64,000 nt of DNA from Strigamia acuminata (lineage: Eukaryota), in the NCBI GenBank assembly GCA_949358305.1, contig OX442314.1:16926001-16990000 (forward strand), written 5' to 3'. This document shows, one piece after another, positions 1 to 44,915 of the stretch (position 1 is its first letter; each line of letters begins with the position of its first letter). Position numbers and translations under genes: made by a program. The notes under the pieces are model-generated. The model was not told where the DNA came from and ran no database searches. It saw only the letters and a program-made list of their open reading frames with translations.

Positions 1-520
1 TTTTCGACGTTAGGCCTAAACTTACTGCGTCGTCGTCAAACCTAGTCTCGAAAAATCTCGGACCCGAACGAGATTTATGAAATGTGAGCTCAACCTGATT
101 ACACGCAACACTAATCTTTTTTTTTTTTCAAAATAAATGTGTTAAATTTTACATTAATCCGTAAATAGCCGTGACGAAAAAAATTACGAGCAAAATCGTT
201 CACCTTTTGTTCGGGTATAATACATAAAAATTATTCGTGTTTTCAAATACTAGTGTTTGTTAAAATTGCACAATGCAACATGAACCGTAAACTTTTTTTT
301 TCCGTTTTTATTTTATTGGTTATTGAATAACAAAAGTTTTTTCGTACATATGTATTTGCACCATGTTAAACATAAAACAAGAAGCCTTACAAATTCAACG
401 ATGCAATTTGAGTAACTCGACCTTAACTTGAGTCTGAAAAGGAAGATGGTGGGTTTCTGAAATTAAAAACAATGATTATTTTGTAGGCAAAAAAAATAAT
501 TTTTTTTACCGATTAATTCC

Positions 521-7700: not shown

Positions 7701-10700
7701 ACTTGAGTCTCGAGACGAAGAAGGTGCGTTTCTAAAATTTAAAACAATTATTATTTTCGTAATTAAATTCAAATTCTAATTTTTTTACCGATTAATTCCT
7801 CGTCTTGAATCTTCGACGCGAGCACATGGTTCGTTAACGAGAGCGTGAAATCTGTAAACCAATTAATTACAATCTACAATTTCTTAAATGAATAACAAAA
7901 CTTACCTATTTGCTGGAGCAGATGATTTACTCTCTGGTTCCCAGCTACTTGTCCTTGATCCGCCACTGCTTCCACGACTCCAACCAACAACATAACGACC
8001 ACTGGTGGTTTCACAAGGCTCTCGTGACTTCACTGTAAACTCTAACTTCTGTCAGCATCCCACAAATATACATATATATAAAACAAGAAAATAAGACAAT
8101 AAACCAATTTTACATTCTTCCTAATGAATTCTTCTGTCTTTACACTAGGTAGTAAAAACTGAGCCCATTGTAAATTCCACGATCTCCACAATTCACCGAC
8201 TTCGTGCGTTCCCTTAATTAAAAAACAACAAATTAATCGTTTTGATTTTAAATATATAAATAAAGCGGTATTACCAATTTCTTAGAAACAGCATGCAAAA
8301 CGGCAGACACAAAAGAGCCAGCATAACCTGTTTCGAAACAAGGCTGGGCTGCCTCATGAAGCCACACCAAAGGTAATGTGCTATCTTCAATCAAAGGCGC
8401 AATTAATTCGCCTAAATATTCCCAAATATGAGGACTATCAATTGCATAACCTTCGGCCAAACTCAGAATTGCTTGAAGGCTGCAAGAAAAATTATAAATC
8501 AAGTATTAAAAAGTGGAAAAAATGAAAAATCGGAACTTTTTATCTTGTATTAACCATAGGGTACCCTTTAATATACTGCTCAGGAGTCATGACTTTCGCC
8601 TTTATTAAATCATGCATCAGTTGACCAATCTGTTGCCTCATTTTAGCCGTGCGTCGTAGAACGTAACAGAATGCATAAGTAACAAAAAAAGAAATTGTTG
8701 TGGAAGCAAATGTTTCTGAAACGCACAGAATAGCTTCCTAGAAGCACAAAAATTCAAATTCAGATACGTTTTTGAACCGCTAAAACAAAATAAATATCCT
8801 ACTTGAAAATCCGAAGTATGTAAAAATTCATCGAGTATTGCCCTAGCTTTCTTTTTAAATTCCTTTTTAGTTAAGTCGGGACATAATAGTAAAAGAGGTC
8901 TTTTACTACTATGGTCGGGATTTTCTCTCAGAGCTACGTCATCTTTCTTCTCTTCGCTGGTAGTACTACTCTCTCGACTGTTATCTCCTGCAGGGTGTCT
9001 ACTTTCCGTAACCAGCTGAAATTGCATTTTTTTTTTCCTGCCATGCACAACAGCTTTGCCAAGATGCTGATCAGAGGGTGCCATTTGGATACCTCGATCT
9101 TTACTTGAGTCCCGAGACGGCGAAAGAGAGTTTCTGAAATTTAAAACAATTATTATTTTCGTGAACAAACACAAAATAATTTTTTTTACCGATTAATTCC
9201 TCGTCTTGGTTCGTTATTATTACTTTTGCTTTTCTCTGGATCAATGTTTGTTCCGATAGTTGTTAGCATTGTGGACAAAACTTCGAATGATTCATCATCT
9301 TCGCGTTTGACCAATTTTTTTAGGCAGTCGTACATGATGTTTGCAGTAAGCATGTGCAACTCAAAGAGTTCGCCAATAAATCTACGCGAAATAGAATAGC
9401 ATTTTTTTCTAGAATTATTTTCAACCAATCAACACAATAAATTATTCAACCTTATATTTCCTAGCGACCTCGTTTTCTCTTTTCTTTCCAAATCCTTCAA
9501 TTTCTCATCCGATTCCTCAGACAATTCATCTTTCATAGCTTTATCCTTCAATAAAATTCGTTATTCACATGCTGCCTTAAAAACCCCATAAACATTCTCA
9601 CATCGGTAAACATTTCCTTGTCCGTCCTAATTTTCGTAATATCAGCAGGACTGTCTCCTTCAAATTCCTTCTGGCATTTTTTGAGCAAGAATTCACGAAA
9701 TTTTACAAAGTGATTATCTTGATTTCCTGTAGGGATTTTTTTCATTCTTAGACGTTGGCATAAATTGGTGTAAGCGATACTGAAATTAGGTTCATCTAAT
9801 GCCTGGCAAAAAAAATTAACACAATATCAACAACAATTCTTCTTGGCAAAACAAATAACTGCTTACTTTTTCAAATACTAAGTCAATAACACCCATTAGC
9901 CCTTCTTCAATGATTGACTGGCATTTAACTTGAGCCTGATAAAATTTCACGAAAATCAAATAAACGCATAAATAACAAACTAAAAAAATACTTACATCCC
10001 TAGGTTTGGCACAAGACTTTACATATCCAGGAGTATGAGATCTTTGAAACCCAGCTAGACTAACGGGCTTTGTTTTATTAGACTTTAAAAAACAACATCA
10101 AACAGTTAAAAAAAAAGAAAAAAAAAAAAAAAAAAAAAAACTCTTATATTACCCAATCTGTAACTGAATCCTTTATAACTTCCAGATCTGGTAAACCTTC
10201 TGGTTTTCGTAAGGACAGTGGCTGAAACTGCATTTGCAGCAAAAATGATCGATCATATTGTCGTTTTCCTTCAGGATTTAAAGGACTCCATTGATCTAAA
10301 ACCACAAAGAAATCCAGTTAAACATTCACCCCAATCTCCTAAACATCGTTTACTAACCTTTCTTAGAAATAGTTTGACTTTTGGTAATAGGTTGATCTAT
10401 TACATCAATCACTTGTTCATTCCTCTCAAAATCTTGACTAACTTTAGTATTTTCTTCAATCTTTTCACTCAATTTACGTTCTTCCTCCTTAGAATTTATG
10501 TTATCAGTGAGAGAAACCTCTTGTGCGACCGCAGGACTACCTTCAGGTAAGTTAATCTAATAAAACAAGACATTTGCACACATTCGTCTAATGTCTGGAA
10601 AAAATTTATCACAAAATCAACAATAATTGAGCTGGCAAAACGAATAACTACCGGTACATACTTTTTCAAATACTAAGTCAATATCACCTATTAGTTTTTC

Positions 10701-12016
10701 TTTAGTGTCTATACTATACTCAAATCATTTTACTTGTTTAACTAATTTGTTAAACTACTTCACTGTTAACTTATTGAGAACACCTCTGACCGCGGAGTAC
10801 GACTTTTGTCCGAGTCTCAGACATGAGCATCTGAATCTCTGTCTAAGTCTTTCCGAATTCTACCTACATTTTTCCGAATTCTACCTACATTTTTCCGAAT
10901 TCTACCTACATTTTTCCGAATTCTACCTACATTTTTCCGAATTTTAGCTACATCTTTCCGAATTTTACCTACATCTTTCTGAATTTTTCCGAATTCTGCC
11001 TAAATCTTGCCAAATCTCTATTCAAATCTTTGCAAGTTTCTATCTGAATCTTTCAAAATGCCGCTAGAATCTGTCTGAATCCTGCCTGACTCCATACGAA
11101 TCCTTCCAAATTTGTGAGAATCTTTCAAAACCCAAAACCGAATTGAAAAAAAAGATTCGAATCTCTTGACATGCAGATTCTGATTGTCGTACCCCCCGCC
11201 TCTGATTCTCATATAAATCCTACGAATATTCAAAAAAAATAACAGGATGCAGTATAACAGAGAATAACATCGGGTACCCGTACCCGTACCCGTAACCGTA
11301 CCCGCCCGTACCCGTAGGGTACGGGCGGGTACGGTTATAGATCTCCCGCGACTCCCGGTTACGGGTCGGGTACGGGTACGTTTTTTGTTCGTTTTTTGTA
11401 CGTTTTTTGTCCTGCTGGCCACGTAATCGCGGGTACGGGTAGGGTAGGGTAGGGGGATTCCGGGATAGCCCGGGTACGGGCGGGTACGGGTACGAAATTG
11501 TTTCGGTGACGGGTAACGGGCGGGTAACGGGTAAACTTTTTTCGCCAATGTTATTCTCTGCAGTATAACTATGACTCAATTCCTTACCTCGGTCGTCAGA
11601 GTTTCGGTATCAGTATCTTTGCCAAGTTCGTGAGTAGGCCTCCATACATTGTCAGGCTTATCCAACAGCACATCGAGATTGGAAAATGATGTTTGAATAT
11701 TATTTTTCTTGATTAGATCGGCTATAAGTTCCTCTAACATTTTTTTGTGGCCTGGTTTAAACTTGAATTCTTCACAAAAATTGTAAAATATTCCATAGGC
11801 TTTGATACTTTTACGTGGTTCAACTTGCTTAATAATCTTTGCATGTTCAATTAAAAACACTTCAATTTCATTGACATCTGTTAATGAACTTAAACTATGT
11901 TCATTATCGTATCCAGTAATTTCTAAGCAAAAACGAACTTCTTCCGGCAGAAGTAATAATGTTTCCTTAAAACCCGAGTTGACAACGGCACCTTGATCTT
12001 GGTCTTCGTTGTCCAT
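4762..12016 (-). CDS. Chimeric, circularly permuted eIF4G gene A: novel N-term - eIF4E-binding motif - partial MIF4G - MA3 - MA3 - W2 - eIF4G N-terminal Q-rich region - PABP-binding motif (predicted)
   Basis: ATG at 12016. YDRSFLL at 10237-10257. In-frame fused exons at about 9910, 9205, 8005, 5915 and 5750. W2 reads through in ORF 5672-6094 ([25 protein letters not shown]...). Ends [20 protein letters not shown] at 4762. Requires skipping the MITE-disrupted exon at about 10660-11220. Confidence 0.55.
8875..8920. mobile_element. 32-bp palindromic micro-insertion with 7-bp TSD, in frame inside a coding exon
   Basis: GTCGGGA + CATAATAGTAAAAGA GG TCTTTTACTACTATG + GTCGGGA. Empty site at about 25365-25371. 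Adds 13 codons ([13 protein letters not shown]). Confidence 0.8.
10783..11206. mobile_element. hAT-like MITE with internal 21-bp minisatellite, inserted in a MIF4G exon copy
   Basis: 8-bp TSD CCTCTGAC/CCTCTGAT. Imperfect TIRs CGCGGAGTACGAC / GTCGTACCCCCCG. Internal (TTTTCCGAATTCTACCTACAT)n. Interrupts a DLY..VRG.LNKLT exon that also carries a TAG. Confidence 0.75.
11250..11568. mobile_element. 303-bp hAT-type MITE (GGGTAC-rich, fold-back), intronic
   Basis: Perfect 13-bp TIR CAGAGAATAACAT/ATGTTATTCTCTG (11258-11560). Perfect 8-bp TSD CAGTATAA. Clean empty site in the duplicate at about 27898-27905. Confidence 0.92.
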
Positions 12017-12360
12017 GACAAAAATCTAGATGGAGATGCTGTGGTAAACTTTCAACACGCACTCCTGGTCGTGTAGTCAGCCCCGTGTGGTGTCATATGA
12101 GCACAGATTAAGGGAATTCCCCTTATCCGTGCTCGTGACCACGCAACACAATGCCAGGAACGTTTCAGCGCCATCGTGTGGCAACGTTTGTCCCAACACG
12201 GAAAAACATTGTGATTACACTGCGCATCGAGAGGGAAAATCTGAAACAAATTCGAAAAAGACTTAAAAATTGGAAATCTAGATGTATTCTGAGATTTTAG
12301 ATTTAGTATGAGTTTAAAGATTTGCTTTCAAATTTTAACTATTTGCTTTCAGACATTAAA

Positions 12361-12651
12361 ATGAGCGTCCAACCCGCGGCCCCCAGGCCGCATGCGGCTT
12401 AGAATCGCTAGGGATGCGGCATTTAATTTTTTTTTATATTCTAGTGTTTGTTTTCTTTAGACAACAAACAGCATTGAAATTAGGATTATTATACGAGGAT
12501 TCTTTGCTTACCTGTGGTGGTGTATATCAAGAAAATTATGTATGGACTTTTTTTTTTGCTCATCAGCTATCGTCGGTGTATTTTATGTGTGGCCCAAACA
12601 ATTCCTCTTCTTCCAATGTTGCCTGGGAAGCCAAGATGTTGGACATCACTG
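12361..12651. mobile_element. hAT-Charlie MITE resembling MER30 (copy 1 of 4)
   Basis: Ends GTCCAACCCGCGGCCC..GGCCGCATGCGGC and GCTCATCAGCTATCGT..GTGTATTTTATGTGTGGCCCAA..TGGGAAGCCAA.A..TTGGACA.C.CTG. Empty sites at about 4220 and 13773. Family assignment is from recalled consensus. Confidence 0.7.
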
Positions 12652-12791
12652 CTTTAAAACTTTTGCTCAATTTTGCTCCAATTTGTAAGATTTTGTGGAT
12701 TTCCAGGATTTCATGAGCTTTGATTAATTTCAAAACTAGCTACTCTAGCTACATGTATTATATTTTAGTTTAATTCACCTTGGCCGCCACA

Positions 12792-12960
12792 TACAGTGGG
12801 GGGGCAAAACTAAATTAAGAAATGTGACATGTTGAATCTCATGGCTCTATCTCGGGGAAAAAAAGGAGAAAAACCAATAATGAAATTTTAACTGAATACT
12901 TGTCTAACATTCTGCTTTGTTCTCCTAAATTTTTTTTTTAAATCTATCCGTTAGTTCTGA
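12792..12960. mobile_element. Possible one-ended Tc1-like remnant (TA-CAGTGGGGGGGCAAAACT); also at about 19742, 29116 and 36065
   Basis: TA followed by a CAGT(G)nCAAAA terminus typical of Tc1-family TIRs. No matching second TIR found. Confidence 0.35.
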
Positions 12961-13039
12961 AGAAAAAAATTATTTCGTGAAGTGACATCAAAAATTAAGA
13001 GGCAAAAGTAAGTTAACAACTCTGTTAACCATCGAGAAA

Positions 13040-13262
13040 CATAACTATTCTCACCCCGAGAAACATTTCCTTGGTTTTTTTTTATTCTCGCAACAACATC
13101 TGCAGTCTCTCTTTCAAATTCCTTCTGGCATTTATTGAGCAGTAATTTATGAAATATCACGAAAGTTATTATCTTGATTTCTCATATATACTTTTTTCTT
13201 AGCTAAACATTTGCATAATTTGGCATAAGCAACACTGAAATTAAGTTTATGTAATGCCTACC
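13040..13262 (-). pseudogene. Orphan frameshifted MIF4G exon (AL.KLNFSVAYAKLCKCL...); copies at about 19990-20202, 29365-29585 and 36315-36525
   Basis: A +1 insertion after DNNF gives a premature TAA. There are no flanking eIF4G exons. Confidence 0.8.
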
Positions 13263-14815
13263 AAGACATTAACAGAACATCAATAATAATTCTACTTGGC
13301 AAAACAAATTAAAAATTTGCCCATCTGTGAATGTGTGAGGGATTTCGTTTTTGTGCCTGCTTATAGTGTAGTCTCGCAAGTAAACGGCGATTAAAAAGTC
13401 CTTCATTTTGACTCAATCAACGAATGAGGTCCACTTATTTAGTTATTTGAACACTATTATATATTTTCGGCTTGGCTCACCTTTTAGGAAGTGGAGGCTT
13501 TGCCTGAAAGCATTGGGATGACTGGAAGAGACCCCTCGATCTATTTTTCGTCTCAGCCTTTTTGAATTTCCTTATAAAAACTCAAACTGGCAGAAACCAC
13601 TTTAAAAAAAAAAACCACACCAGCCGTAGTTTTTGTTTCTGAAGTTTTTTGTGATCGTTTTCAGCTGTTTTTGATGCCTATTCTGTTACTTACAGAAACT
13701 TTCAATGCACACCTATTGAGATAAAGTAAGCTTTCTTAGATTTTCCTTCAAATTTTAATTATCTACCGTCAGACTCTAAAATTTTGCGCAATTTTGCTGC
13801 AGTTTTCATGAATTTATATGATTTTGGGTATTACATGAGATTTCATGGGTTTCATGATTTACAAAATCCAAATTCTTGACTCCTAAGATATCCACCATTG
13901 GCTATCCTCTCAGCTTTGATTCGTGTTTTATACTTAAAATTAATCGTGCTTTCAAATAAGGCTAGTGTCTGTTAAATTTGCATAATGCAAAATTACCGTA
14001 AACTTTTTTTTTTCCAGTTTTTATTTTATTGGTTATTGAACAACAAAGGTTTTGTCATACAATGTGCATTTACCCAATATTAAACCTAAAGCCAGACGCC
14101 CCACAAACTCAGCGATGCATTATATTATGTAATTCCCCATTATCTCAATTAATATAATAATAATATATGTAAATGAAAGAATAATTTTCTAGGAAAAAAG
14201 ATTTGAGGAGCTATAATGGATAAATTTATTTCATTTGGCTGATCACCTCAAATTTCCCTATTCCTGTGTTAGATTTCACCTCGCTATTGTACTTCTGCAA
14301 TCGAAATCTTGAGAAACAAATAGAACTCATGGTTAATACTTGGTTATAATATAATTTACACAAACGTAAATATAACTGGCTACTCTAGCTGCAATATACA
14401 AAACAATTGGCAATGCTTTTTTTTTTGTTGTATTCATGACAATATACAACTCGAGACTCCATTACAACATGCCTTTTTTATCAGTCACAATTTTGTTAAA
14501 GCAGTCCAAAGGCCAATTTAAGCCATTTTTCTTACCAAAAAAACAAGAAAAAATAAATTTTAATCGACTTAAAAATCATGCAGCCATCATAAGAAACAAT
14601 AATTAAAAAACAAAAACTGTAGTGAAAAAAAAAAAGAAAAAAAAAACACTTTCGGAAGAAAAAAAATAATACATATACGATTGTACCCTAAAATCCCCCC
14701 CTCCCCCTCGTTAGTGCGGCAGCAACGACGATGGGGTGGAGCAGCCAGTCGATGTTCGGAGCATAGGCCAGTAGATTTGATGGGTTGTGATTACTTTCTA
14801 AGGGGAAGCCATGAC

Positions 14816-15968
14816 TCAGCTTTGATCCAAAGTTTTTGGATTATTTTCGTCTCTTCTGGGAACCCAATTGTTCTGTCGCAAATCTGTGACATCTTGCAAC
14901 ATGAAACGAACTCTCGGCGATGCCTGTCGCTTATTAATGATTTCCTTCATCATTCGAAAGTAAGAGTTCATCTTATCATCCTACATAAAATAAATACCGC
15001 AATTAGAACACAACTTTTTTTAAACTGTAATTTAATTTCCACTTGCCACTGGTTCTTTATTATTGCTTTGGCTCTTCTCTGGATCAATGTCTTTTCCGAT
15101 AGTTGTTAACAATATGCAAAAACATTCTAATGAATGGTCATCTTCCTGATTGAGCAATTTTTTTAGACAATCATGTATGATGCTGGCAGTGAGCATGTGC
15201 AACTTAAAAAGTTCGCCAATAAATCTACGCGAAATAAAAGAAACATTATTTTCGACGATCAACACGATAAATTATTCAACAACCTTATATTCCCTAGCGA
15301 TCTCCTTTTCGCTTTTCTTTCCAAATCCTCCAATTCTTCGTCCAATTCACGTTTCTTAGCTTCATCCTATAACAATAACATTCGTTTCGTTATTCACATT
15401 AAAAACCCCCTAAATATTCTCACATCAGGAAACATTTCCTTGGCCCTCTTGATTCTCGCAACATCATCCGCAGTGTCTCTTTCAAATTCCTTCTGGCATT
15501 TATTGAGCAGTAATTTACGAAAGTACCGGTATACAAAGTGATTATCTTGATTTCCTGTAGGGACTTTTTTCATAGCTAGACACTTGCATAAGTCAGCAAC
15601 ACTGAAATTAGGTTCATCTAATGCCTGGCAAATAATTAACACAAAATAAACAATAATTCTACTTGGCCAACAAATAATTGCTTACTTTTTCAAACACTAA
15701 GTTAGTAACACCCATTAGCCTTTCTTCAGTGTCTATACTTAAATCGTTTACTTGTTTCGATAATGTGTTAAACTTCTCCTGTGTCAACTCATTGAGAATA
15801 TCTCCGACTCTTTTATATAAATCCTAAGAATATTCAAAAAAGTTAACACAATACAGTTTCCGAATAAAACGTATTCCTTACCTCGGTCTTAAGAGCCTCG
15901 GTGTCTGTATCCTTGCCAAATTTATGAGTACGCCTCCAAGCACCTTGATCTTGGTCTTCGTTGTCCAT
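14816..15968 (-). CDS. Stand-alone MIF4G minigene C1 (6 predicted exons)
   Basis: [10 protein letters not shown] fused in frame to [19 protein letters not shown]|, then [35 protein letters not shown] and [23 protein letters not shown]. The last codons and the 3'UTR come from the parental end (AGC TGA GTCATGGCTTCCCC). Confidence 0.65.
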
Positions 15969-16046
15969 GACAGAAATCTAGATGGAGATGCTGTGGTAAA
16001 CTTTCAACCCGCACTCCTGGTCGTGTAGTCAGCCCAGTGTGGTGTC

Positions 16047-16086
16047 ATATGAGCATAGATATAGATTACTATATCTATGATATGAG
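16047..16086. mobile_element. 26-bp palindromic micro-insertion with 7-bp TSD (duplicate at 32371-32410)
   Basis: ATATGAG + CATAGATATAG ATTA CTATATCTATG + ATATGAG. Empty sites at about 12095 and 28432. Confidence 0.8.
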
Positions 16087-16433
16087 CACAGATTAAGGGA
16101 ATTCTCCTCTTCTGTGCTCGTGACCACGCAACACAATGCCAGGAACGTTTCAGCGCCATCGTGTGGCAACGTCAAGATGTAGATGCTGTGGTAAACTTTC
16201 AACGAGCACTCCGGGTAGCAGTTGTTGTGGTTTTATTTAGTTTGATTATTTTAGATCTTTGAAATGATTTAAAATGACTAATATTTAATAATAAAATGTT
16301 TTTAAAAGTCTGGAAGCAATGTTTTAAGCTGTTACTTTTTCAAAATTCATGATTCGTCAGTTCGCTCAGTTTATCGGTTGTTATGTCAAGCTTGTTTTGA
16401 AATTTATGATCGATTATTCTGTTTGGACACAAA

Positions 16434-18516
16434 ATGGCTTCCCGCAACTCGAGTGTTTGCTCTCCGGATATTTCCAAAGTTTCTTCCCGCGACTCCAGTG
16501 TTTGCAGTCCATCTCCTGATCTTCTTGACTTTCTTCCAACTCCGGCACACAGTAGGCGCACACGTCGAGGTGGTGTCCACCTCCCGAAAATCCCCGTGGC
16601 TGAATTTAAGAAATTCGAGAAAGGTCGCCCCATTAATAGACAGGCAAAGCAGATTGTATTGAATTTATTTAATCAATTTTTTCATAAGCAACCTGAAGTT
16701 GGTTGTAAAGAGTTGATTAAACTTCTGTCAAATGTAACCGGTTTGGGAATTCAAAGCATACAGAAAATAAGAAGAGAGATGAATGATAAAGGTGAGTAAA
16801 AACATTGAAGTTTAAAAATAAAAATTAACACTTTCTTTTGGTTTAGGACAATTGAAAACACCAGGGAAGAAGAGGTGCGGTGATTTTCGGAAGCGTATGA
16901 ACAAATATGATTCGTTCACACAATCCGCTATTCGTGCGAAAGTGCACGAATTTTTCCGTAGAGGTGAGGTGCCCACACTGAAAAAGGTTGTAGCCAAAAT
17001 TCAGAATGATGAGACACTTCCGAGTTTAAGCAAAGAAGCATTACGTTTATTTCTACACGACATCGGTTTCAAGTTTATGAAACATAAAAGCAATGCAGCT
17101 TTAATTGAACGCGAAGACATAGTCGCTTGGAGAAGGAAGTATTTGCGTCAGATTAGCGGTTATCGCCGAGAAGGAAGAAAAATTTATTACATGGACGAAA
17201 CATCGGTTAATGCAGGTTATTAACTGAAATTATAATTTAATTTGAAATTTGAAATTAACTAAATGCTAATTCTTATTGTAGGTGAAAATGTAAGCAAATC
17301 ACACACAAATGGTTTTCTGAGTACTGGACTGAAACATCCCACACCCAAAGGAGGTAGGCATATTGTTGCTTACATTGGAAGTGACACAGGTTTCATCAAG
17401 AATGGTTTACTTCTTTTCAAGTAATTTAAATTACATTAATCTGGAAGTATTGTGTATTTAATTATTGTAATTACTTTTAGAGCTACCGGTAAGAAATCTG
17501 ATGATACCTACCACTCAAAGATGATCTCGGTAAACTTTATGAAGTGGATGGAAACTATTTTTCCAAACTTGGAAAAAGGCAGTGTGATAGTGATGGATAA
17601 TGCATCCTATCACACTGAAGAATTGGATCCAACACCCACAACTGAATGGCTTAAAGCCGATATCCAAAAATGGTGCATTGACCATAATGCACATTTTGAG
17701 GATAATTATGTAAAGGCTGAGTTACTGGAGGTATTCTATTTTAAAATATAACAATAATTTAATATATCATCAATACTTATTTATTATACTAGGTTGTAGC
17801 TACAATAAAAAACAATTTTGTCAGCTATGTCTTTGATTCCAGAGCCCAGGATTTAGGGTTCAAAGTTTTGCGCTTGCCTCCACACCACTCTTGCCTAAAT
17901 CCAATTGAAATGGTTTGGAGACAGGTCAATAATTGAATAAACTTGCTGCATCTAAACACAAAAGAAATTGTATTATAAAAAAAATAAAATTACAGGTTAA
18001 GCACCATGTTCGCTTTAACAACACCACATTTAAATTGCCACAAGTCAAACAACTGATGCGACAAGGGACTGTAGTAGTGACGTCCCAGCAATGGGAAAGT
18101 TATTTTTCGCATGTAAAAAGGAAGGTTTGTAAATTAATAATTCATATTCGTTCTTATCTTGTCTCATATACAACATTCTATTGAAGGAACAACAAATGTG
18201 GGATCAGGAAGAATTAATCAATGATGTAATGGAGCAATTCATCATTAACGCCGGGGATGATTCATCAAGTGATGAAGATTTATCAAGTGGTGAAGATTTC
18301 TCAGACAGCCAAGATAATGATGAAGACGCTACAACAACTGCAACAAACACAACTTGTCTCAATCCTTTCCTTCTGCAACGAATAAAAACCGAAGATTTAT
18401 CAAGTGATGAAGATTTCCCAGACAACCACGATAATGATGAAGATACTACAACAATTGCAACAAACACAACTTATGTCAATTCTTTCCTTCTGCAACAAAT
18501 AAAAACCGAATTTTGA
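16434..18516 (+). CDS. Intron-containing IS630-Tc1-mariner transposase, DD82E (Sailor-type), about 568 aa, copy 1
   Basis: Exons 16434-16791, 16847-17215, 17282-17420, 17481-17730, 17793-17924, 17996-18124 and 18187-18516 join with GT-AG in frame. Catalytic motifs YMDET, VMDNASYH and LPPHHSCLNPIE, with 82 residues between the second D and the E. Confidence 0.88.
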
Positions 18517-19359
18517 AATAACAAATAAATTTGGTATTACATCGATAATCTATGACAGACAGACCGGACTTCATGTCTTAAATTCATCACTTGAGTCAGT
18601 AATCTTTCGTCTCATTCGCGGACTTCGGGCGACAAATCTCCCGTTTCTGATTAAATAAAATTAATTTTTTTTTTTACTTTTGCTGACAATTTTCGTCTGA
18701 GCGCCCGTTGTTTTCTTCGATGGCTTTGTTGCCCACATCGTTAACACTTAAAATTCAAACAGAAATAAAACTGTACATCGATTGCAGTAACCTCAAATAT
18801 ATGAAAATAAATGCAAACAAAATGAATCGGTAAATTGATTATTACAATGACTTAATTAATTCCATAATTATGGTTCAGTGATTATTTTATAAAAAAGCCT
18901 GTACTCAGATCATCCTCTAATTCGAGAACAAATGTGCATCGGCCAGTATAAAAAGCTCTTCCTTCTACTTCAACAATTACTGCCGGATATTTTCCACACT
19001 TGGTTAGGTTGTGACGATTCTACTTTTGGCTGAATAATTAGCCATTACAAGAGATAAATCGGTTTAAACAAGACATTTCTACAACTAGAAATAACCTAAC
19101 CGAGATAAGCTACGGAAGTCTGTACAACGTGAATATGTGATCAAATATAATAACTTACGATTTTCGTGTGATATAATTACATGTTTATTAACATTACAAC
19201 TGGGTTGTGGTTCTGGATAAGCATCGAGAGGGAAAATCTGGATCAAATTCGAAAGACTTACTATACAAATTGGAAATCTAGATGTATCCTAAGATTTTAG
19301 ATTTAGTAAGAGTTTAAAGATTTTCCTTCAAATTTTAATTATCTGCCTTCAGACTTAAA

Positions 19360-19603
19360 ACGGGTGTCCAACCCGCGACCCCCAGGCCGCATGCGGCTTT
19401 TAATTTTTTTTAAATATATTCTAGTGTTTGTTTTCTTTAGACAGCAAACAGCATTGAAATTAGGATTATTATACGAGTATTCTTTGCTTACCTGTGGTGG
19501 TGTATATCACGAAAATTTTGTATGGACTTTTTTTTTTTGCTCATCAGCTATCGTCAGTGTATTTTATGTGTGGCCCGGGAAGCCAAGATATTGGACATCC
19601 CTG
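19360..19603. mobile_element. MER30-like hAT MITE, copy 2 (internally shorter)
   Basis: GGGTGTCCAACCCGCGACC... ...TTGGACATCCCTG, in the same flanks as copy 1. Confidence 0.7.
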
Positions 19604-21872
19604 CTTTAAAACTTTTGCTCAATTTTGCTCCAATTTGTAAGATTTTGTGGATTTCCAGGATTTCATGAGCTTTCATTAATTTCAAACTAGCTACTCTAGC
19701 TATTATATTTTAGTTTAATTCACCTTGGCCGCCGCGAGATATACAGTGGGGGGCAAAACTAAGTTAACAAATGTGACATGTTGAATCTCATGGCTGTATC
19801 TCGGAAAAAAAGGAAAAAAAACCAATAAAATTTAAACTGAATACTTGTCTAACATTCTGCTTTGTTCTACTAAAATTTTTATGAAAATCTATCCATTAAT
19901 TCTGGAGATAAAAATTATTTTGTGAAGTGACATCAAAAATTAAGAGGCAAAAGTAAGTTAACAACTCTGTTAACCATTGAGAAACCTAACTATTCTCACC
20001 TCTGGAAACATTTCCTTGACTTTCTTTATTCTTGTAACATCATCCGCAGCGTCTCTTTCAAATTCCTTGTGGCATTTATTGAGCAGTAATTTATGAAATA
20101 TCACGAAGTTATTATCTTGATTTCTCATATATACTTTTTTCTTAGCTAAACATTTGCGTAATTTGGCATAAGCAACACTAAAATTAAGTTCATGTAATGC
20201 CTACCAAGAAATTAACAGAACATCAATAATAATTCTATTTGGCAAAACAAATTAAACATTTTACCAGCTGTGAAGTGTGAATGTGTGAGGGATTTCGTTT
20301 TTGTCCCTGCTTATAGTGTAGTCTCGTAAGTAAACGGTGATTAAAGAGTCATTTTGACTCATTCAACGAATGAGGTCCACTTATTTAGTTATTTGAACAC
20401 AATTATATATTTTTGGTTTGGCTCACCTTTTAGGAAGTGGAGGCTTTGCCTGAAAACATTGTGATGACTGGAAAAGACCCACCTCGATCTATTTTTCGTC
20501 TCAGCCTTTTCGAATTTTCTTCTGAAAACTCAAACTGGCAGAAGCCACTTAAAAAAAAACCACACCAGCCGCAGATTTTGTTTCTGAAGATTTTTGTGAT
20601 CGTTTTCAGCTGTTTTTGATGCCTATTCTGTTACTTACAGAAACTTTCAATGCACACCTATTGAGATTAAGTAAGCTTTCTTGGATTTTCCTTCAAATTT
20701 TAATTATCTATCGTCAGACTCTAAAAATTTACGCAATTTTGCTGCAGTTTTCATAAATTTAGATGATTTTGGGTATTTTATGAGATTTCATGGGTTTCAT
20801 GATTTACAAAATCAAAATTGTTGACTCCTGGGATATCCACCATTGGCTATCCTCTCAGCTTAAGCTGACACATGCAACAAGAAAAAACTTACGCGAATAA
20901 ATCGTCACCGCTTTGATTCGTGTTTTATGCTTAAAATTAATCGTGCTGTCAAATAAGGCTAGTGTCTGTTAAATTTGCATAATGCAAGATTACCGTAAAC
21001 TTTTTTTTCAGTTTTTATTTTATTGGTTATTGAACAACAAAGGTTTTGTCATACATGTGTATTTACACCATATTAAACCTAAAGCCAGACGCCCCACAAA
21101 CTCAGCGATGCAGGACTATTGACCTGGCATGCATTATATTATGTAATTCCCCATTATCTCAATTAATATAATAATAATATATGTAAATGAAAGAATAATT
21201 TTCTAGGAAAAAAGATTTGAGGAGCTATAATGGATAAATTTATTTCATTTGGCTGATCACCTCAAATTTCCCTATTCCTGTGTTAGATTTCACCTCGCTA
21301 TTGTACTTCTGCAATCGAAATCTTGAGAAACAAATAGAACTCATGGTTAATACTTGGTTATAATATAATTTACACAAACATAAATATAACTGGCTACTCT
21401 AGCTGCAATATACAAAACAATTGGCAATACTATTATTTTTTTTTGTATTCACGACAATATACAACTCGAGACTCCATTATAACATGCCTTTTTTATCAGT
21501 CACAATTTTGTTAAAGCAGTCCAAAAGCCAATTTAAGCCATTTTGCTTATCAAAAAAACAAGAAAAAATAAATTTCAATCGACTTAAAAATCATGCAGCC
21601 ATCATAAGAAACAATAATTAAAAGACAAAAACTGTAGTGAAAAAAAAAAAGAAAAATAAAACAATTTCGGAAGAAAAAAAATAATATATATACGAGGTTA
21701 GACCATCCAATGTGATTGGCTGGTCGATCCATTTGATTGCACCCTAAAATCCCCTCCCTCCCCCTCGTTAGTGCGGCAGCAACGAAGATGGGGTGGAGCA
21801 GCCAGTCGATGTTCGGAGCATAAGCCAGTAGATTTGATGGGTTGTGATTACTTTCTAAGGGGAAGCCATGAC

Positions 21873-24800
21873 TCAGCTTTGATCCAAAGTTTTTGGATTA
21901 TTTTCGTCTCTTCTGGGAACCCAATTGTTCTGTCGCAAATCTGTGACATCTTGCAACATGAAACGAACTCTCGGCGATGCCTGTCGCTTATTAATGATTT
22001 CCTTCATCATTCGAAAGTAAGAGTTCATCTTATCATCCTACATAAAATAAATACCGCAATTAGAACACAACTTTTTTTAAACTGTAATTTAATTTCCACT
22101 TGCCACTGGTTCTTTATTATTGCTTTGGCTCTTCTCTGGATCAATGTCTTTTCCGATAGTTGTTAACAATATGCAAAAACATTCTAATGAATGGTCATCT
22201 TCCTGATTGAGCAATTTTTTTAGACAATCATGTATGATGCTGGCAGTGAGCATGTGCAACTTAAAAAGTTCGCCAATAAATCTACGCGAAATAAAAGAAA
22301 CATTATTTTCGACGATCAACACGATAAATTATTCAACAACCTTATATTCCCTAGCGATCTCCTTTTCGCTTTTCTTTCCAAATCCTCCAATTCTTCGTCC
22401 AATTCACGTTTCTTAGCTTCATCCTATAACAATAACATTCGTTTCGTTATTCACATTAAAAACCCCCTAAATATTCTCACATCAGGAAACATTTCCTTGG
22501 CCCTCTTGATTCTCGCAACATCATCCGCAGTGTCTCTTTCAAATTCCTTCTGGCATTTATTGAGCAGTAATTTACGAAAGTACTGGTATACAAAGTGATT
22601 ATCTTGATTTCCTGTAGGGACTTTTTTCATAGCTAGACACTTGCATAAGTCAGCAACACTGAAATTAGGTTCATCTAATGCCTGGCAAATAATTAACACA
22701 AAATAAACAATAATTCTACTTGGCCAACAAATAATTGCTTACTTTTTCAAACACTAAGTTAGTAACACCCATTAGCCTTTCTTCAGTGTCTATACTTAAA
22801 TCGTTTACTTGTTTCGATAATGTGTTAAACTTCTCCGGTGTCAACTCATTGAGAATACCTCCGAATCTTTTATATAAATCCTAAGAATATTCAAAAAAGT
22901 TAACACAATGCATTAATAATTGTGATTAAAATAAAATAAAATATTAAAAAAAATAAAATCACCGAATCGGAATTATCGATTTTATGGCCCACTATTTCCT
23001 CAGTCAGATCTCCAGACGTAGTGGGATCTTGAATACGAATTAGTTTTTTCTCTCGTTTGGGTAATTGGGGCTGTTGAGACGGCGGCATTGACGGCACCGG
23101 ATGTCGGGGCATCATATGACTGTAGAACACTAAAAGCCAGACGACGAAATGCAAGTCAGAACCGAATTTGATCAAATGAAGATCACTCTTATTGTTACCT
23201 GGAGGATTTCCACCTCCGTAATGCGTAAATGGCGTATTCGCGGTCGAAACGTACATAGTCTGAGCTGGAGACTGGACTTGGTAAGGCTGTTGAGGAGGAT
23301 ATTGAATCCTGTACTGTAAAAGCGCAACAAACTCCTTCATTAGTTGTACGACTTGAAAAGGAACTCATCAACTCACATTAGGTGTACCACCACCCGTCAT
23401 GTGCTGCATAGTATTAATTTGCTGCGGTGGCGGTTGTTGAGTGTGAGCATAAAGCGACTGTTGTTGCTGGGTAGCAGTCGCCGGGTTTATACCCATATTT
23501 ATTCCTGGGCGTTGATTAACCGAAGAAACCTGTGGCCGAGGTGGTGGTTGACGAGAATAAAATGGCTGCAAGTTCTGCATAGTTTTGACAATTATTTCAC
23601 TTCATTTATGCAAAGGTTATATTTTAATTACCGGAGGCATGTGTGTTCCGAATACCATCGGAGTATTGGACGCACCTGGCTTCCCAGATTGGCACTGCTT
23701 ACCCATATCGTGGGTGTTAGTATTTGCGGACGTTCGCTGCTGATGTTCTGCCAAACGCATTTGTTGATTAGGATACATACTTTGGATATCCGCATCCAAT
23801 TCGTTTTCCTCAACCGATTCGTTTTCCGCTTCCTCCAGCCAACCATAAAAAGAACGGACAGAGTTCAAAGCCACGCTTTTACCCTCCTGTTCTACAGGAT
23901 CTTCACTCATCTTCCATAGTAAGAAAGTATCCTCAGAAATTATCTCTTCGTCATAAAGGAACCCGAAAAATGTGCACAATATTCCTAAATTAAATAAAAG
24001 AAATCAGTTCAAATTCTAACTTCACTTTGATCAATTATATTTCATCACCTTTCGGTTGTTCCAATTGATGCATAAGAGCTTGCAGGGCGTAAAGTGCTTG
24101 CATTTCGCACGCTTCTGAATGATCCAAGTATTTTCTTAAAATATTACAACGATTTCTCAATAGAGCTTCATCCACTTGTATCGTTGAGTCATCTGTAAAC
24201 ATGAAAAACCAAAGAGAAAATTGTTTTTATAAAATGTTCATTAATGTGCAAACAGTATGGTCTTACTACTTTTTCCTAATACACTTTGACATACAGCTAT
24301 CATTAAAGCACGAACAAATGATGCTTCGTGACATTGGCTTTCATTCAGGTGTGCCTACAGTTAAAAAAATAAAATCAACAAAAATCGACTTGTTTATTTG
24401 GTAATGTATTTCTCACGTCTATCCAATCGAAAATTTCTTCAATTTCAGTTTGCTTATTAGCAAATAGTGCAGTTAACTCGGTTTTCAGTTGCCCGGAAGA
24501 AAAATTGGTAGTTTTGCAAGGCTCTGGTGGCTTCACTGTAAACTCTAACTTCTGTCAGCATCCGACAAATATACATATATATAAAACCAGAACATGAGAC
24601 AATAAACCAATTTTACATTCTCCTTAATGAATTCTTCTGTCTTTACACTAGATAGTAAAAATTGAGACCATTGTAAATTCCACGATCTCCACAATTCACC
24701 AACTTCGTGCGTTCCCTTAATTAAAAAACAACAAATAAATCGTTTTGTTTTTAAATATCCAAGAAAAGTGGTATTACCAATTTCTTAGAAACAGCATGCA

Positions 24801-27800
24801 AAACGGCAGTCACAAAATAGCCAGCACAACCTGTTTCGTAACAGGGCTGGGCTACCTCGTGAAGACATATCAAAGGTAATGTACTATCTTCAATCAAAGG
24901 CGCAATTAATTCGCCTAAATATTCCCAAATATGAGGAATATCAATTGCATAATCTTTAACCAAACTCAGAATTGCTTGAAGGCTGCAAAAAAAAATAAGA
25001 AATAATAAGTATTGAAAAGAAAAAAAATAAATAAAGACATTGCATTAACCTTACCCTTTAATATACTGCTCAGGAGTCATAACTTTCGCCTTTATTAAAT
25101 CATGCATCAGCTGACCAACCTGTTGCCTTATTTTAGGCGAGCGCTCTAGAACGCAATTGAATGCATGAGTAACAAAAAAAGAAATTGTTGTGGAAGCAAA
25201 TATTTCTGAAACGCACAAAATAGCTTCCTAGAAGCACAAAAATTCAAATTTAGATACGTTTTAGAACCGCTAAAACAAAATAAATATCCTACTTGAAAAT
25301 CAGAAATATGTAAAAATTCATCGATTAGTGCCTTAGCTCTCCTTTCAATTTCCTTTTCAGTTAAGTCGGGATTTCCTCTCAGAACAACATCTTTTTTCTC
25401 TTCGCTGGTAGTACTACTCTCTCTACTGCTACCTCTTGCAGCATGTCTACTTTCCGTAACCAGCGGCAATTGCTTCTTTTTTTCCCTGCCATGCACAACA
25501 GCTTTGCTACGATGCTGATCAGGGGGTGCCATTTGAATACCTCGACCTTTACTTGAGTCCCGAGACGGCGAAAGAGAGTTTCTGAATTTTAAAACAATTA
25601 TTATTTTCGTAAACAAACACAAAATAATTTTTTTTACCGATTAATTCCTCTTCTTGGTTCGTTATTATTACTTTTGCTTTTCTCTGGATCAATGTTTTCT
25701 CCGATAATTGTAAGCATTGTGGACAAAACTTCGAACGATTCCTCATCTTCATAATTGAGCAATTTTTTTAGGCAGTCGCACATGATGCTGGCAGTGAGCA
25801 TGTGCAACTCAAAGAGTTCACCAATAAATCTACACGAAATAGAAAAGCATTATTTTCTAGAATTTCTTTCAACTAATCAACACAATAAATTATTCAACCT
25901 TATATTTCCTAGTGACCTCGTTTTCGCTTTTCTTTCCAAATCCTGCAATTCCTCATCCGATTCCTCAGCCAATTCATCTTTCATAGCTTTATCCTTCAAT
26001 AAAATTCGTTATTCACATGCTGCCTTAAAAACCCCATAAATATTCTCACATCGGTAAACATTTCGTTGTCTCTCTTAACTTTCGTAATATCAGCAGGACT
26101 GTCTCCTTCAAATTCCTTCTGGCATTTTTTGAGCAAGAATTCACGAAATTTTACAAAGTGATTATCTTGATTTCCTGTAGGGATTTTTTTCATTCTTAAA
26201 CGTTGGCATAAATTGGTGTAAGCGATACTGAAATTAGGTTCATCTAATGCCTGGCAAAAAAAATTAACACAATATCAACAACAATTCTACTTGGCAAAAC
26301 AAATAACTGCTTACTTTTTCAAAAACTAAGTCAATAACACCCATTAGCCTTTCTTCAATGATTGACTGGCATTTAACTTGAGCCTGATAAAATTTCACGA
26401 AAATCAAATAAACGCATAAATAACAAACTAAAAAAATACTTACATCCCTAGGTTTGGCACAAGACTTTACATATCCAGGAGTATGAGATCTTTGAAACCC
26501 AGCTAGACTAACGGGCTTTGTTTTATTAGACTTTAAAAAACAACATCAAACAGTTAAAAAAAAAGAAAAAAAAAAAAAAAAAAAAAAACTCTTATATTAC
26601 CCAATCTGTAACTGAATCCTTTATAACTTCCAGATCTGGTAAACCTTCTGGTTTTCGTAAGGACAGTGTCTGAAACTGCATTTGCAGCAAAAATGATCGA
26701 TCATATTGTCGTTTTCCTTCAGGATTTAAAGGACTCCATTGATCTAAAACCACAAAGAAATCCAGTTAAACATTCACCCCAATCTCCTAAACATCGTTTA
26801 CTAACCTTTCTTAGAAATAGTTTGACTTTTGGTAATAGGTTGATCTATTACATCAATCACTTGTTCATTCCTCTCAAAATCTTGACTAACTTTAGTATTT
26901 TCTTCAATCTTTTCACTCAATTTACGTTCTTCCTCCTTAGAATTTATGTTATCAGTGAGAGAAACCTCTTGTGCGACCGCAGGACTACCTTCAGGTAAGT
27001 TAATCTAATAAAACAAGACATTTGCTCACATTCGTCTAATGTCTGGAAAAAATTTATCACAAAATCAACAATAATTGACCTGGCTAAACGAATATCTACC
27101 GGTACATACTTTTTCAAATACTAAGTCAATATCACCTATTAGTCTTTCTTTAGTGTCTATACTATACTCAAATCATTTTACTTGTTTCACTAATTTGTTA
27201 AACTACTTCACTGTTAACTTATTGAGAACACCTCTGACCGCGGAGTACGACTTTTGTCCGAGTCTCAGACATGAGCATCTGAATCTCTGTCTAAGTCTTT
27301 CCGAATTCTACCTACATTTTTCCGAATTCTACCTACATTTTTCCGAATTCTACCTACATTTTTCCGAATTCTACCTACATTTTTCCGAATTCTACCTACA
27401 TTTTTCCGAATTCTACCTACATTTTTCCGAATTCTACCTACATTTTTCCGAATTCTACCTACATTTTTCCGAATTCTACCTACATTTTTCCGAATTCTAC
27501 CTACATTTTTCCGAATTCTACCTACATTTTTCCGAATTCTACCTACATTTTTCCGAATTCTATCTACATTTTTCCGAATTCTACCTACATTTTTCCGAAT
27601 TTTAGCTACATCTTTCCGAATTTTACCTACATCTTTCCGAATTCTGCCTAAATCTTGCCAAATCTCTATTCAAATCTTTGCAAGTCTCTATCTGAATCTT
27701 TCAAAATGCCGCTCGAATTTGTCTGAATCCTGCCTTACTCCATACGAATCCTTCCAAATTTGTGAGAATCTTTCAAAACCCAAAACCGAATTGAAAAAAA

Positions 27801-28353
27801 AGATTCGAATCTCTTGACATGCAGATTCTGATTGTCGTACCCCCCGCCTCTGATTCTCATATAAATCCTACGAATATTCAAAAAAAATAACAGGATGCAG
27901 TATAACTATGACTCAATTCCTTACCTCGGTCGTCAGAGTTTCGGTATCAGTATCTTTGCCAAGTTCGTGAGTAGGCCTCCATACATTGTCAGGCTTATCC
28001 AACAGCACATCGAGATTGGAAAATGACGTTTGAATATATTTTTTCTTGATTAGATCGGCTATAAGTTCCTCTAACATTTTTTTGTGGCCTGGTTTAAACT
28101 TGAATTCTTCACAGAAATTGTAAAATATTCCATAGGCTTTGATACTTTTACGTGGTTCAACTTGCTTAATAATCTTTGCATGTTCAATTAAAAACACTTC
28201 AATTTCATTGACATCTGTTAATGAACTTAAACTATGTTCATTATCGTATCCAGTAATTTCTAAGCAAAAACGAACTTCTTCCGGCAGAAGTAATAATGTT
28301 TCCTTAAAACCCGAGTTGACAACGGCACCTTGATCTTGGTCTTCGTTGTCCAT
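21873..28353 (-). CDS. Chimeric, circularly permuted eIF4G gene B: novel N-term - 4E-binding motif - partial MIF4G - MA3 - W2 - N-terminal region/PABP motif - complete second MIF4G (predicted)
   Basis: ATG at 28353. YDRSFLL at 26685-26705. W2 read-through in ORF 23617-23979 ([27 protein letters not shown]). [18 protein letters not shown] motif. The phase-0 donor DNSDS|GT joins the phase-0 DLYKRF exon at 22881. Ends KTLDQS* at 21873. Requires skipping the MITE-disrupted exon at about 27110-27868. Confidence 0.55.
27231..27854. mobile_element. hAT-like MITE (duplicate of 10783-11206) with expanded 21-bp minisatellite
   Basis: Same TSD and TIRs. About 14 near-perfect repeat units here versus about 4 in the other copy. 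Confidence 0.75.
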
Positions 28354-28682
28354 GACAGAAATCTAAATGGAGATGCTGTGGTAAACTTTCAACCCGCACT
28401 CCTGGTCGTGTAGTCAGCCCCGTGTGGTGTCATATGAGCACAGATTAAGGGAATTCCCCTTATCCGTGCTCGTGACCACGCAACACAATGCCAGGAACGT
28501 TTCAGCGCCATCGTGTGGCAACGTTTGTCCCAACACGGAAAAACATTGTGATTAAATCTGAAACAAATTCGAAAAAGACTTACTGTATAAATTGGAAATC
28601 TAGATGTATACTGAGATTTTAGATTTAGTATGAGTTTAAAGATTTGGCTTCAACTTTTAACTATTTGCTTTCAGACATTAAA

Positions 28683-28975
28683 ATGAGTGTCCAACCCGCG
28701 GCCCCCAGGCCGCATGCGGCTTAGAATCGCTATAGGGCTGCGGCATTTAATTTTTTTTTATATTCTAGTGTTTGTTTTCTTTAGACAACAAACAGCATTG
28801 AAATTAGGATTATTATACGAGGATTCTTTGCTTACCTGTGGTGGTGTATATCAAGAAAATTATGTATGGACTTTTTTTTTTGCTCATCAGCTATCGTCGG
28901 TGTATTTTATGTGTGGCCCAAACAATTCCTCTTCTTCCAATGTTGCCTGGGAAGCCAAGATGTTGGACATCACTG
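28683..28975. mobile_element. MER30-like hAT MITE, copy 3
   Basis: Near-identical to 12361-12651. Confidence 0.7.
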
Positions 28976-31139: not shown

Positions 31140-32292
31140 TCAGCTTTGATCCAAAGTTTTTGGATTATTTTCGTCTCTTCTGGGAACCCAATTGTTCTGT
31201 CGCAAATCTGTGACATCTTGCAACATGAAACGAACTCTCGGCGATGCTTGTCGCTTATTAATGATTTCCTTCATCATTCGAAAGTAAGAGTTCATCTTAT
31301 CATCCTACATAAAATAAATACCGCAATTAGAACACAACTTTTTTTAAACTGTAATTTAATTTCCACTTGCCACTGGTTCTTTATTATTGCTTTGGCTCTT
31401 CTCTGGATCAATGTCTTTTCCGATAGTTGTTAACAATATGCAAAAACATTCTAATGAATGGTCATCTTCCTGATTGAGCAATTTTTTTAGACAATCATGT
31501 ATGATGCTGGCAGTGAGCATGTGCAACTTAAAAAGTTCGCCAATAAATCTACGCGAAATAAAAGAAACATTATTTTCGACGATCAACACGATAAATTATT
31601 CAACAACCTTATATTCCCTAGCGATCTCCTTTTCGCTTTTCTTTCCAAATCCTCCAATTCTTCGTCCAATTCACGTTTCTTAGCTTCATCCTATAACAAT
31701 AACATTCGTTTCGTTATTCACATTAAAAACCCCCTAAATATTCTCACATCAGGAAACATTTCCTTGGCCCTCTTGATTCTCGCAACATCATCCGCAGTGT
31801 CTCTTTCAAATTCCTTCTGGCATTTATTGAGCAGTAATTTACGAAAGTACCGGTATACAAAGTGATTATCTTGATTTCCTGTAGGGACTTTTTTCATAGC
31901 TAGACACTTGCATAAGTCAGCAACACTGAAATTAGGTTCATCTAATGCCTGGCAAATAATTAACACAAAATAAACAATAATTCTACTTGGCCAACAAATA
32001 ATTGCTTACTTTTTCAAACACTAAGTTAGTAACACCCATTAGCCTTTCTTCAGTGTCTATACTTAAATCGTTTACTTGTTTCGATAATGTGTTAAACTTC
32101 TCCTGTGTCAACTCATTGAGAATATCTCCGACTCTTTTATATAAATCCTAAGAATATTCAAAAAAGTTAACACAATACAGTTTCCGAATAAAACGTATTC
32201 CTTACCTCGGTCTTAAGAGCCTCGGTGTCTGTATCCTTGCCAAATTTATGAGTACGCCTCCAAGCACCTTGATCTTGGTCTTCGTTGTCCAT
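31140..32292 (-). CDS. Stand-alone MIF4G minigene C2 (duplicate of C1, offset 16324)
   Basis: Same exons and splice sites as 14816-15968; the ORF-track translations are identical. Confidence 0.65.
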
Positions 32293-44100: not shown

Positions 44101-44878
44101 TTTTGGCAGTCATATCGTGATAAAACTTACACTTTGTACTCTCCACTACAAAAATGTACGCCAACGATTTAATTATTTATTTCTCCATGACCTTAGAACT
44201 AAAAAGCCGAAATAATTCAAACTATTGGCTTCGTGCCACCGAAATTGATTGTTCGGATGAACAAAGTAGGGCAGAAATTAAATTCCTAAAATACCCAGAA
44301 CTTTTTTCTGTTAAATAAATAAAATGTTGTTCAATACTCACACTCGGTTTCCCATTTTTCTGCGTGTGGGTCAACCATGTCATTAGCACCGACATCACCG
44401 TTCTCCTGCGGACTCATCTCGTCATCTGCACTGGCGTCTGCAGATTCCGCTGCGTTTACAGTACTCTCGTGCTGAACAATCACGGGTGTCTGCTCGATGT
44501 GTTCGGGAACTGCGACTTCAACCTCGACTGGAAGTGGCGCAAAATCCGCTTCTCTCTCCCTCGGGACAACGACTGGCGCGTCTACCGGGTGCTCAGTGCT
44601 AGGAATTGCATTTACTTCGATTGGGTCCATAAACGTAGGCATGTTGAATGGAGGAGCGGCTACGTTTCTGGGCACTACATTCACCGATTGAGTCTCGCGG
44701 ATTTCGGTTTCAGTACTGCTTTTCTCGGTCAGTTTCACCTGAGCACTAATCACATTGGGATTGCTTACGTCTGTTTTAGTTTCATGACTTTCGGTTGACT
44801 TTTCAACAATCACAGCACTCCTAGTTGAGATGGCTGCTATATGTTGATGCATCTGAACCTGTGCCGGTGGTTGATGAT

Positions 44879-44915
<37 letters not shown>

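Follow-up and report, generated by a model that had tools for sequence, protein, structure and literature searches.

The window, a 64-kb stretch of DNA, contains an eIF4G gene (38196..46044, minus strand) modelled with 27 exons and 1,534 residues and taken here as the parental gene. Its product is 90.8% identical to the Strigamia maritima eIF4G (T1J0U7) across 1,533 aligned positions; since T1J0U7 matches across the modelled junctions, the parental gene model was considered validated, apart from the first 24 residues of the orthologue, which it does not include. The match makes a Strigamia-like centipede the likely source of the DNA. The region downstream from this gene is a mosaic of duplications; mapping of the parental exons one by one resolved five rearranged eIF4G copies with open reading frames beside the parent, named A, B, C, D1 and D2 (copies were counted inside the window). 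All five begin with one common foreign upstream region and start.

Gene A (4762..12016, minus strand), the sister of B, has 26 exons and 1,553 residues, contains two MA3 copies and ends after the PABP-binding motif. It is the cleaner circular permutant: its frame is open, it has no intact MIF4G, and its two MA3 copies are reminiscent of PDCD4. Gene C (510..3030, minus strand) consists of the foreign exon 1 and MIF4G, with 604 open codons; the AG of its exon-9 acceptor is lost. D1 (31140..32292, minus strand; 283 residues) and D2 (14816..15968, minus strand) are MIF4G-only minigenes with identical proteins. Both retain the Trp motif and carry Asp at the position of human S767, where the parent has Gly; in the available part of PMC7470955, S767D of human eIF4G1 failed to bind wild-type eIF4A1.

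Several other elements were observed in the window. A 19-nt tandem array (14.6 copies, 98% matches) lies between genes A and C at 3614-3892, and a small inverted-repeat element with 16-nt ends (11258-11560), absent from B, lies within the first intron of gene A. The parental gene has its own GC donor after exon 18, at 40192 (minus strand); the matching site of gene A is GT. Genes with Pfam matches to LSM, eIF5A, EMC1 and Rer1 were found at 47600-62500, together with a 250-residue hydrophobic ORF at 59788-60540 (minus strand) that has no Pfam match. An Rfam search yielded no matches, and a word-index protein search with the W2/N-terminus exon returned T1J0U7 as the sole match (1 of 42 candidates). 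The literature searched, judged mostly by title and with subscription papers largely outside its scope, gave no account of such eIF4G copies among the papers listed under Strigamia, arthropod duplication or permutation/chimera.

Architecture of gene B

Gene B (21873..28353, minus strand, as are all its parts below) was modelled, with splice-site scores, as 24 exons encoding 1,380 residues in one open frame, whose sole stop is the terminal one, at codon 1,381; its start at 28353 lies beyond the interval first given for the feature (21873..23979). The order of its parts is a foreign first exon (predicted SAM-like), the 4E motif, a broken MIF4G, MA3, W2, the PABP motif, a MIF4G, and the parental stop and UTR. 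The permuted module order described in the earlier note is real, and the canonical order PABP - 4E - MIF4G - MA3 - W2 is not found. All exons of B except the first map to eIF4G.

Exon 1 (27925..28353) carries the foreign domain (28023-28326) in frame with the 3' end of parental exon 11, and the Trp-anchor motif of B lies within this exon 11 part. Exons 2-3 (26601..27004) contain an intact eIF4E-binding motif, YDRSFLL, which fits YxxxxLphi and is located at residues 220-230 of 1,380; PF21140 scored 33 bits on the 4E exon against a cut-off of 27 (30.6 bits for the parental exon). Exons 5-8 (25638..26383) encode a partial MIF4G without helix 1 and the last helices, both ends of which are in-frame fusions. 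The linker and MA3 follow in exons 9-12 (24617..25581) and W2 in exons 13-16, 5' part (23810..24551); PF02847 and PF02020 were found above cut-off on single exons, and MA3 and W2 are 82.6% identical to those of the parent over 453 residues.

From W2, gene B reads through into copies of parental exons 2-5 (22963..23809): exon 16 (23984-23632) continues via ...[19 protein letters not shown] in the frame of parental exon 2, and the segment ends with an intact PABP-binding motif, [13 protein letters not shown], which matches the eIF4G peptide of PDB 1LJ2 (E 9e-4). A hybrid intron of 82 nt (22881..22962, phase 0 to phase 0; donor score 6.1, acceptor score 9.5) comes next. It consists of parental intron 5 on the 5' side and a D/C-type copy of intron 11 on the 3' side, joined at a 6-nt microhomology with one mismatch. 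The tail MIF4G cassette, exons 20-24 (21873..22880), is a near copy of the D minigenes with a GC donor after 22104; it ends with KTLDQ fused to AGC TGA, that is Ser and stop, and is followed by a parent-type 3' UTR (21000..21872; AATAAA at 21244 and 21024) identical to that of the parent at 862 of 871 bases and to that of D1 at 787 of 809. The read-through, the PABP motif, the hybrid intron, the fused 3' end and the truncation of the upstream MIF4G at both ends, all proposed earlier from the letters of the DNA, were recovered in this model. The in-exon fusions of B keep the frame in five of five cases.

Residues 10-110 of exon 1 belong to a family that has no name, with nine relatives found at E values of 3.6e-10 to 8.8e-4. 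A model built from nine sequences reached a pLDDT of 88, and SAM appeared in nine of the top 12 titles among its structure matches (best Z 6.4, rmsd 3.9 over 69 residues). No match was obtained in Foldseek or Pfam, word-index protein searches with exon 1 gave 0 of 11 and 0 of 368 candidates, and in the atlas the hits at 0.91-0.92 were nameless clusters, named ones staying at or below 0.89. A SAM-like helical fold is the lead that this model provides; an oligomerising role of the domain would be speculation. The fold predicted from the single sequence (pLDDT 55) gave generic helical matches only and was dropped. Among the relatives (P0002-P0010) a Cys/His cluster is often present at the end, and two carry the domain twice. 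The relative P0010, of 1,010 residues, has a long unmatched region beyond the exon-1-like domain and gave no Pfam or useful PDB match; the long region looks transposase-like, and the transposon origin of exon 1 that we would presume from it rests on this motif impression. A transposase-like gene with intron-like interruptions was observed at 16410-18516 and 32734-34840 (plus strand), once in each arm of the 10.3-kb duplication described below, with a weak DDE_3 match (E 0.0023, below cut-off) and a 117-nt tandem pair near its end.

The earlier note had all eIF4G modules present in B. This did not hold: B contains no counterpart of about 412 of the 1,534 parental residues, parental segments 242-496 and 961-1082 being absent. 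Human numbering was taken from chain 8OZ0 (offset 196) and verified manually on six residues that PMC7470955 names. Parental segment 961-1082, which hardly differs between the parent and T1J0U7, corresponds in the alignment to the human linker that follows HEAT-1, in which the excerpted text of PMC12709193 places the eIF3 site of eIF4G1 (1011-1104); by this alignment B appears to lack the eIF3-binding linker. The whole post-MIF4G linker is missing from B, D1 and D2, and A retains its end only. The tail of B spans human residues 760 to about 1005, which makes it shorter than the human 653-1020 construct, inactive in the eIF4G1 tethering assays of PMC7470955 as available, in which a construct ending at 1053 was active; these linker and tethering data are mammalian and are applied here to a centipede sequence. 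The tail begins at the first MIF4G exon and has no Trp contact next to HEAT-1 of the kind located upstream of that domain in yeast (W579; PMC9177959, in part). The sole Trp motif copy of B is in exon 1, about 1,000 residues from the tail.

The tail MIF4G/HEAT-1 itself is full-length, corresponding to parental residues 708-960 with a 2-residue deletion and a 2-residue insertion, provided that the GC donor is used. Its helix 1 carries the changes V765F, R766G and K771E; R766 and K771 are common to the parent, S. maritima, human eIF4G1, eIF4GII and DAP5. In work by Marcotrigiano from 2001, these two positions are said to be part of an eIF4A-binding mutant of eIF4GII. Five contact residues, R764, N770, T773, Q783 and D982, are retained in the tail, as compared with those named in the portions available of PMC7470955 and PMC4402527 (N770 aligns to the DAP5 N86 position of the latter), so that binding of eIF4A may be only weakened; the intact MA3 would be a second site. 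Residues 775-787 of HEAT-1 contact eIF3 directly according to the accessible text of PMC10948362, and only two positions of this stretch are different in B and the parent; DAP5, moreover, binds eIF3 despite a poorly conserved linker (PMC12709193, in part). All five copies have lost MIF4G helix 1 or carry changes in it. The excess of changes in the first MIF4G exon (7 of 46 versus about 12 of 205, p 0.057) is not significant, and clustering in helix 1 was rejected as proof of a selected loss. B is better kept apart from canonical eIF4G scaffolds, as three of the defining features tested were found wanting: the Trp contact just upstream of HEAT-1, the eIF3-binding linker and the module order.

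Splicing, origin and selection

A dead copy of the first MIF4G exon (27110..27867, minus strand) lies between exons 1 and 2 of gene B, split by a MITE-like insertion with 13-nt inverted ends at 27239 and 27846 and an internal 21-nt array. Splice sites were scored with a matrix from the 26 parental introns. The acceptor of the dead exon, at 27867, scored 10.7 and is 57 nt from the exon-1 donor, which is the parental intron length, versus a score of 5.8 and a distance of 920 nt for the modelled exon-2 acceptor. Used without a rescue donor, it brings the frame to a stop after 59 codons; the frame would be restored through a 27-nt mini-exon by a phase-0 donor at 27841 (score 6.3). The donor of exon 23 is GT in the parent and GC in B, where its score of 4.7 lies within the parental leave-one-out range of 1.3-8.6, and read-through past it stops after ...EPVASGN. 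The full frame of B thus requires that the dead exon be skipped or the mini-exon used, and that the GC donor function at exon 23. All 46 modelled splice sites of B keep AG and GT/GC. The poison route through 27867 is a real risk to the gene model. Inside exon 17, at 23503 (minus strand), a B-specific change makes AATAAA, a possible early polyadenylation signal.

The arrangement of the copies points to a stepwise origin. A 10.3-kb tandem duplication (arms 11559..21878 and 27896-38201, 99.4% identical) ends at 21878, which placed the parental stop and UTR behind B. The fusion of KTLDQ to the stop also occurs in the stand-alone minigenes D1 and D2. Variants of C, and its full intron 11, recur in D, which was therefore likely derived by two deletions from a gene resembling C; one of these deletions likely fused KTLDQ to the last codon and stop of the parent. 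The W2-to-N-terminus read-through is common to genes A and B, and as dS between the two copies of this segment is about 0.2, the permutation is older than the tail of B. The latter differs from D1 at five positions in 759 coding nt (dS 0.007). This closeness, together with the hybrid intron, indicates that the tail was gained ready-made and recently, or was homogenised by conversion. The statement that B "regains" a complete MIF4G is an overstatement, since the tail came from a minigene that already existed and was copied and fused to B recently; as the D cassette is older than the fusion, the intactness of the tail was inherited. That B regained MIF4G by its own selection was rejected, the cassette predating the fusion.

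B is likely to be a real, unusual chimeric duplicate that arose through tandem duplication and deletion. A false join of closely similar repeats in the assembly, which the 99.4% identical tandem repeat and three near-identical MIF4G cassettes of the region might favour, is a very improbable source of the B-specific tail junction: the B cassette has five private bases at positions identical in D1 and D2, which is not what a simple mis-join would produce, the microhomology at the junction carries a substitution, contig depths roughly scale with copy number in the window (two runs of one study), and two A/B-type junctions are covered by contigs in a run of another study. With the parental stop junction as the reference, depth was 1.1-1.3 for B-only sequence, 1.7 for A plus B, 2.2-2.5 for parent plus A plus B and 2.2 for the dead-exon pair; the tail cassette, in three copies, gave 3.9-4.7 and the UTR, in four, 3.0-3.1, an inexact fit. 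These depths come from single contigs and are a weak measure, and the runs may include the assembly's own sample.

The search returned six sequencing runs, none of which is on record as RNA, and contigs from four of the six were compared with 19800-27200, an interval outside which exon 1, gene A, the D genes and the parent lie. Among the contigs listed, none bridges the B junctions at 22910 or 23810-23790 (22919-22959 was skipped as repeat). Contig ends within one base of the B/D fork, seen in two runs, were too indirect to count. One run, X4 (19 Mb of contigs, possibly RNA), gave three records, two parent-type and one C-type; the C-type sequence is in a low-depth contig that includes intron bases. 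X4 has no B-specific cover, which is not evidence of silence.

The reading frames of the copies look as if they have been kept by selection. When the copies were compared with the parent, length had changed in 10 of 44 exons, each time by a multiple of three, and in 21 of 35 introns, two of them by a multiple of three (Fisher p 1.5e-6, an inflated figure, as several events are common to copies and not independent). For B alone the counts are five of five length-changed exons and one of 10 length-changed introns, which, with its five frame-keeping fusions, is beyond chance. Under neutrality about 10.7 stops were expected in B and none was seen (P 1.5e-5); the simulation puts half of each segment's dS on the B lineage, a share that branch fits indicate is too high for the tail and too low for the upstream MIF4G and MA3. 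Three of the five dead exon copies carry frameshifts; a 200-nt copy has none and another is too short to judge. Between A and B, 102 of 2,181 exon bases differ, with indels in multiples of three only and no stop, where 4.2 stops were expected for 95 changes (P 0.0125). Since both genes carry the MITE and open frames, the frame was likely kept after the insertion.

Constraint on the amino acids is relaxed, and much weaker than in the parent. With distances apportioned on a fixed tree, pooled dN/dS of the duplicate branches was 0.50 (0.33-0.84), 0.44 (0.24-0.78), 0.55 (0.37-0.80) and 0.64 (0.40-1.10); three of the four bootstrap intervals exclude 1 and that of 0.64 includes it. The parental MIF4G branch gave 0.10-0.16. 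Terminal branches gave 0.21-0.64 for B and 0.90-1.47 for A, noisy values from few changes, and A-versus-B dN/dS was 0.75-1.02 for the linker and MA3. These results support the view that the parts of B were probably translated at some time. The final architecture of B is too young (dS 0.007 from D1) for the fusion to be covered as well; the evidence for selection concerns the parts.

Possible roles and related systems

The readings of gene B were ranked in the order of a decoy, closely followed by a decaying or neutral duplicate, then a working scaffold and, less probable still, the assembly error considered above. If translated, B, a chimera of eIF4G pieces, would likely act as a decoy for eIF4E and PABP that recruits ribosomes poorly. 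We favour this reading tentatively, at somewhat less than even chances, because A and B have best preserved the parts by which eIF4E and PABP are bound, the damage having fallen on the parts that recruit eIF3 and eIF4A. In the proposed series of events, a foreign upstream region and first exon would have been joined to an eIF4G copy (C type), two deletions would have produced the MIF4G-only D type, head-to-tail read-through the permuted A/B type, and a very recent deletion would have fused an A-like gene to a D copy, creating the tail of B. The B product would then occupy eIF4E and PABP in a dead-end closed loop, as the N-terminal fragment released by enteroviral 2A does, and eIF4A might be held by the MA3 of B. 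A human fragment with the 4E and PABP sites and without the eIF3 and eIF4A sites is, in the part available of a preprint (PMC13081929), a dominant repressor of translation that needs both sites. Against the decoy stands the cost that a strong dominant repressor would be expected to impose if it were expressed without restriction.

Only a little less credible is that B is a decaying or near-neutral duplicate, in which the frames of its ancestors were selected and B itself is now silent, mostly spliced to the MITE-split exon and degraded, or translated into a harmless protein. The strong poison acceptor at parental spacing, the GC donor in the tail, the B-specific AATAAA of exon 17, the relaxed dN/dS (near 1 in several A-versus-B segments), the very recent tail fusion and the acceptor already missing from gene C all speak for decay; the stop-free A-B comparison, the presence of the MITE in both genes, the 46 of 46 modelled splice sites that are kept, the rescue donor at 27841 and the use of a GC donor by the parent itself speak against it.

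We consider it improbable that B is a working alternative scaffold which binds eIF4E, eIF4A, PABP and, through its tail, enough eIF3, perhaps for a subset of mRNAs as with Mextli or DAP5. Such a scaffold would account for the presence of 4E, MA3, W2, PABP and a full-length MIF4G in one frame and for the five retained contact residues, and Mextli is a precedent, a protein that has a MIF4G-like domain, carries its 4E motif at the C-terminus and promotes translation (PMC4573856, in part). It is opposed by the absent linker and the short tail, by the distance of the Trp motif from that tail, by R766G and K771E, which alter residues shared from the parent to DAP5, and by the inherited intactness of the tail.

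Extended to the whole array, the decoy reading becomes a good deal more doubtful: a young genome-encoded family in which the captured upstream region and SAM-like exon would drive shuffled copies whose eIF4A-contact helix is lost or altered, A and B being circularly permuted cap-to-tail clamps, hard-wired counterparts of the 2A fragment, and D1 and D2 MIF4G-only proteins with the S767D-type Asp. If expressed, the genes would offer a natural test of whether the order of eIF4G modules matters and would exemplify a core translation factor turned into its own regulator in a short evolutionary time; if not, they would be a clear record of exon shuffling with frames kept, of local interest only. The array keeps C, D, A and B, apparent intermediates of permutation by duplication, side by side.

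The nearest functional analogy is the N-terminal fragment of eIF4G1 produced by enteroviral 2A, which has the eIF4E and PABP sites without the eIF3 site (PMC13081929, preprint, in part); it is a proteolytic product without a HEAT domain, whereas B is a gene with MA3, W2 and an altered MIF4G. Mextli, in the available text of PMC4573856, is likewise an invertebrate protein in which a MIF4G-like domain and a 4E motif are arranged otherwise than in eIF4G, but it belongs to an old family of its own, has a KH domain and acts through eIF3 to promote translation, and B is a recent derivative of eIF4G. No KH domain was seen in the parts of B, which also lack the C-terminal 4E motif of Mextli. DAP5/p97 and PDCD4 are, like B, related to eIF4G and hold a subset of its modules; the 4E and PABP sites retained by B are missing from DAP5, and PDCD4, which sequesters eIF4A with two MA3 domains, has no 4E motif (excerpts of PMC12709193). 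Gene A, by analogy, might sequester eIF4A through its own two MA3 copies.

Drosophila eIF4G2/off-schedule retains the normal domain order, unlike B. This testis protein resembles B in being an extra arthropod eIF4G paralogue, as far as reference titles in PMC12709193 tell. Canonical metazoan eIF4G (T1J0U7, human eIF4G1) is the source of all eIF4G-like parts of B, in which 4E, MA3, W2 and PABP are kept; it differs from B in module order, in having no foreign first exon and in the two MIF4G copies of B, one broken and one altered. In circular permutation by tandem duplication, two head-to-tail copies are read through as one and their outer ends are then lost, a model that matches genes A and B. 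The cases generally known are single-fold enzymes or domains; here it is a modular scaffold that was permuted, with further deletions and a foreign first exon.
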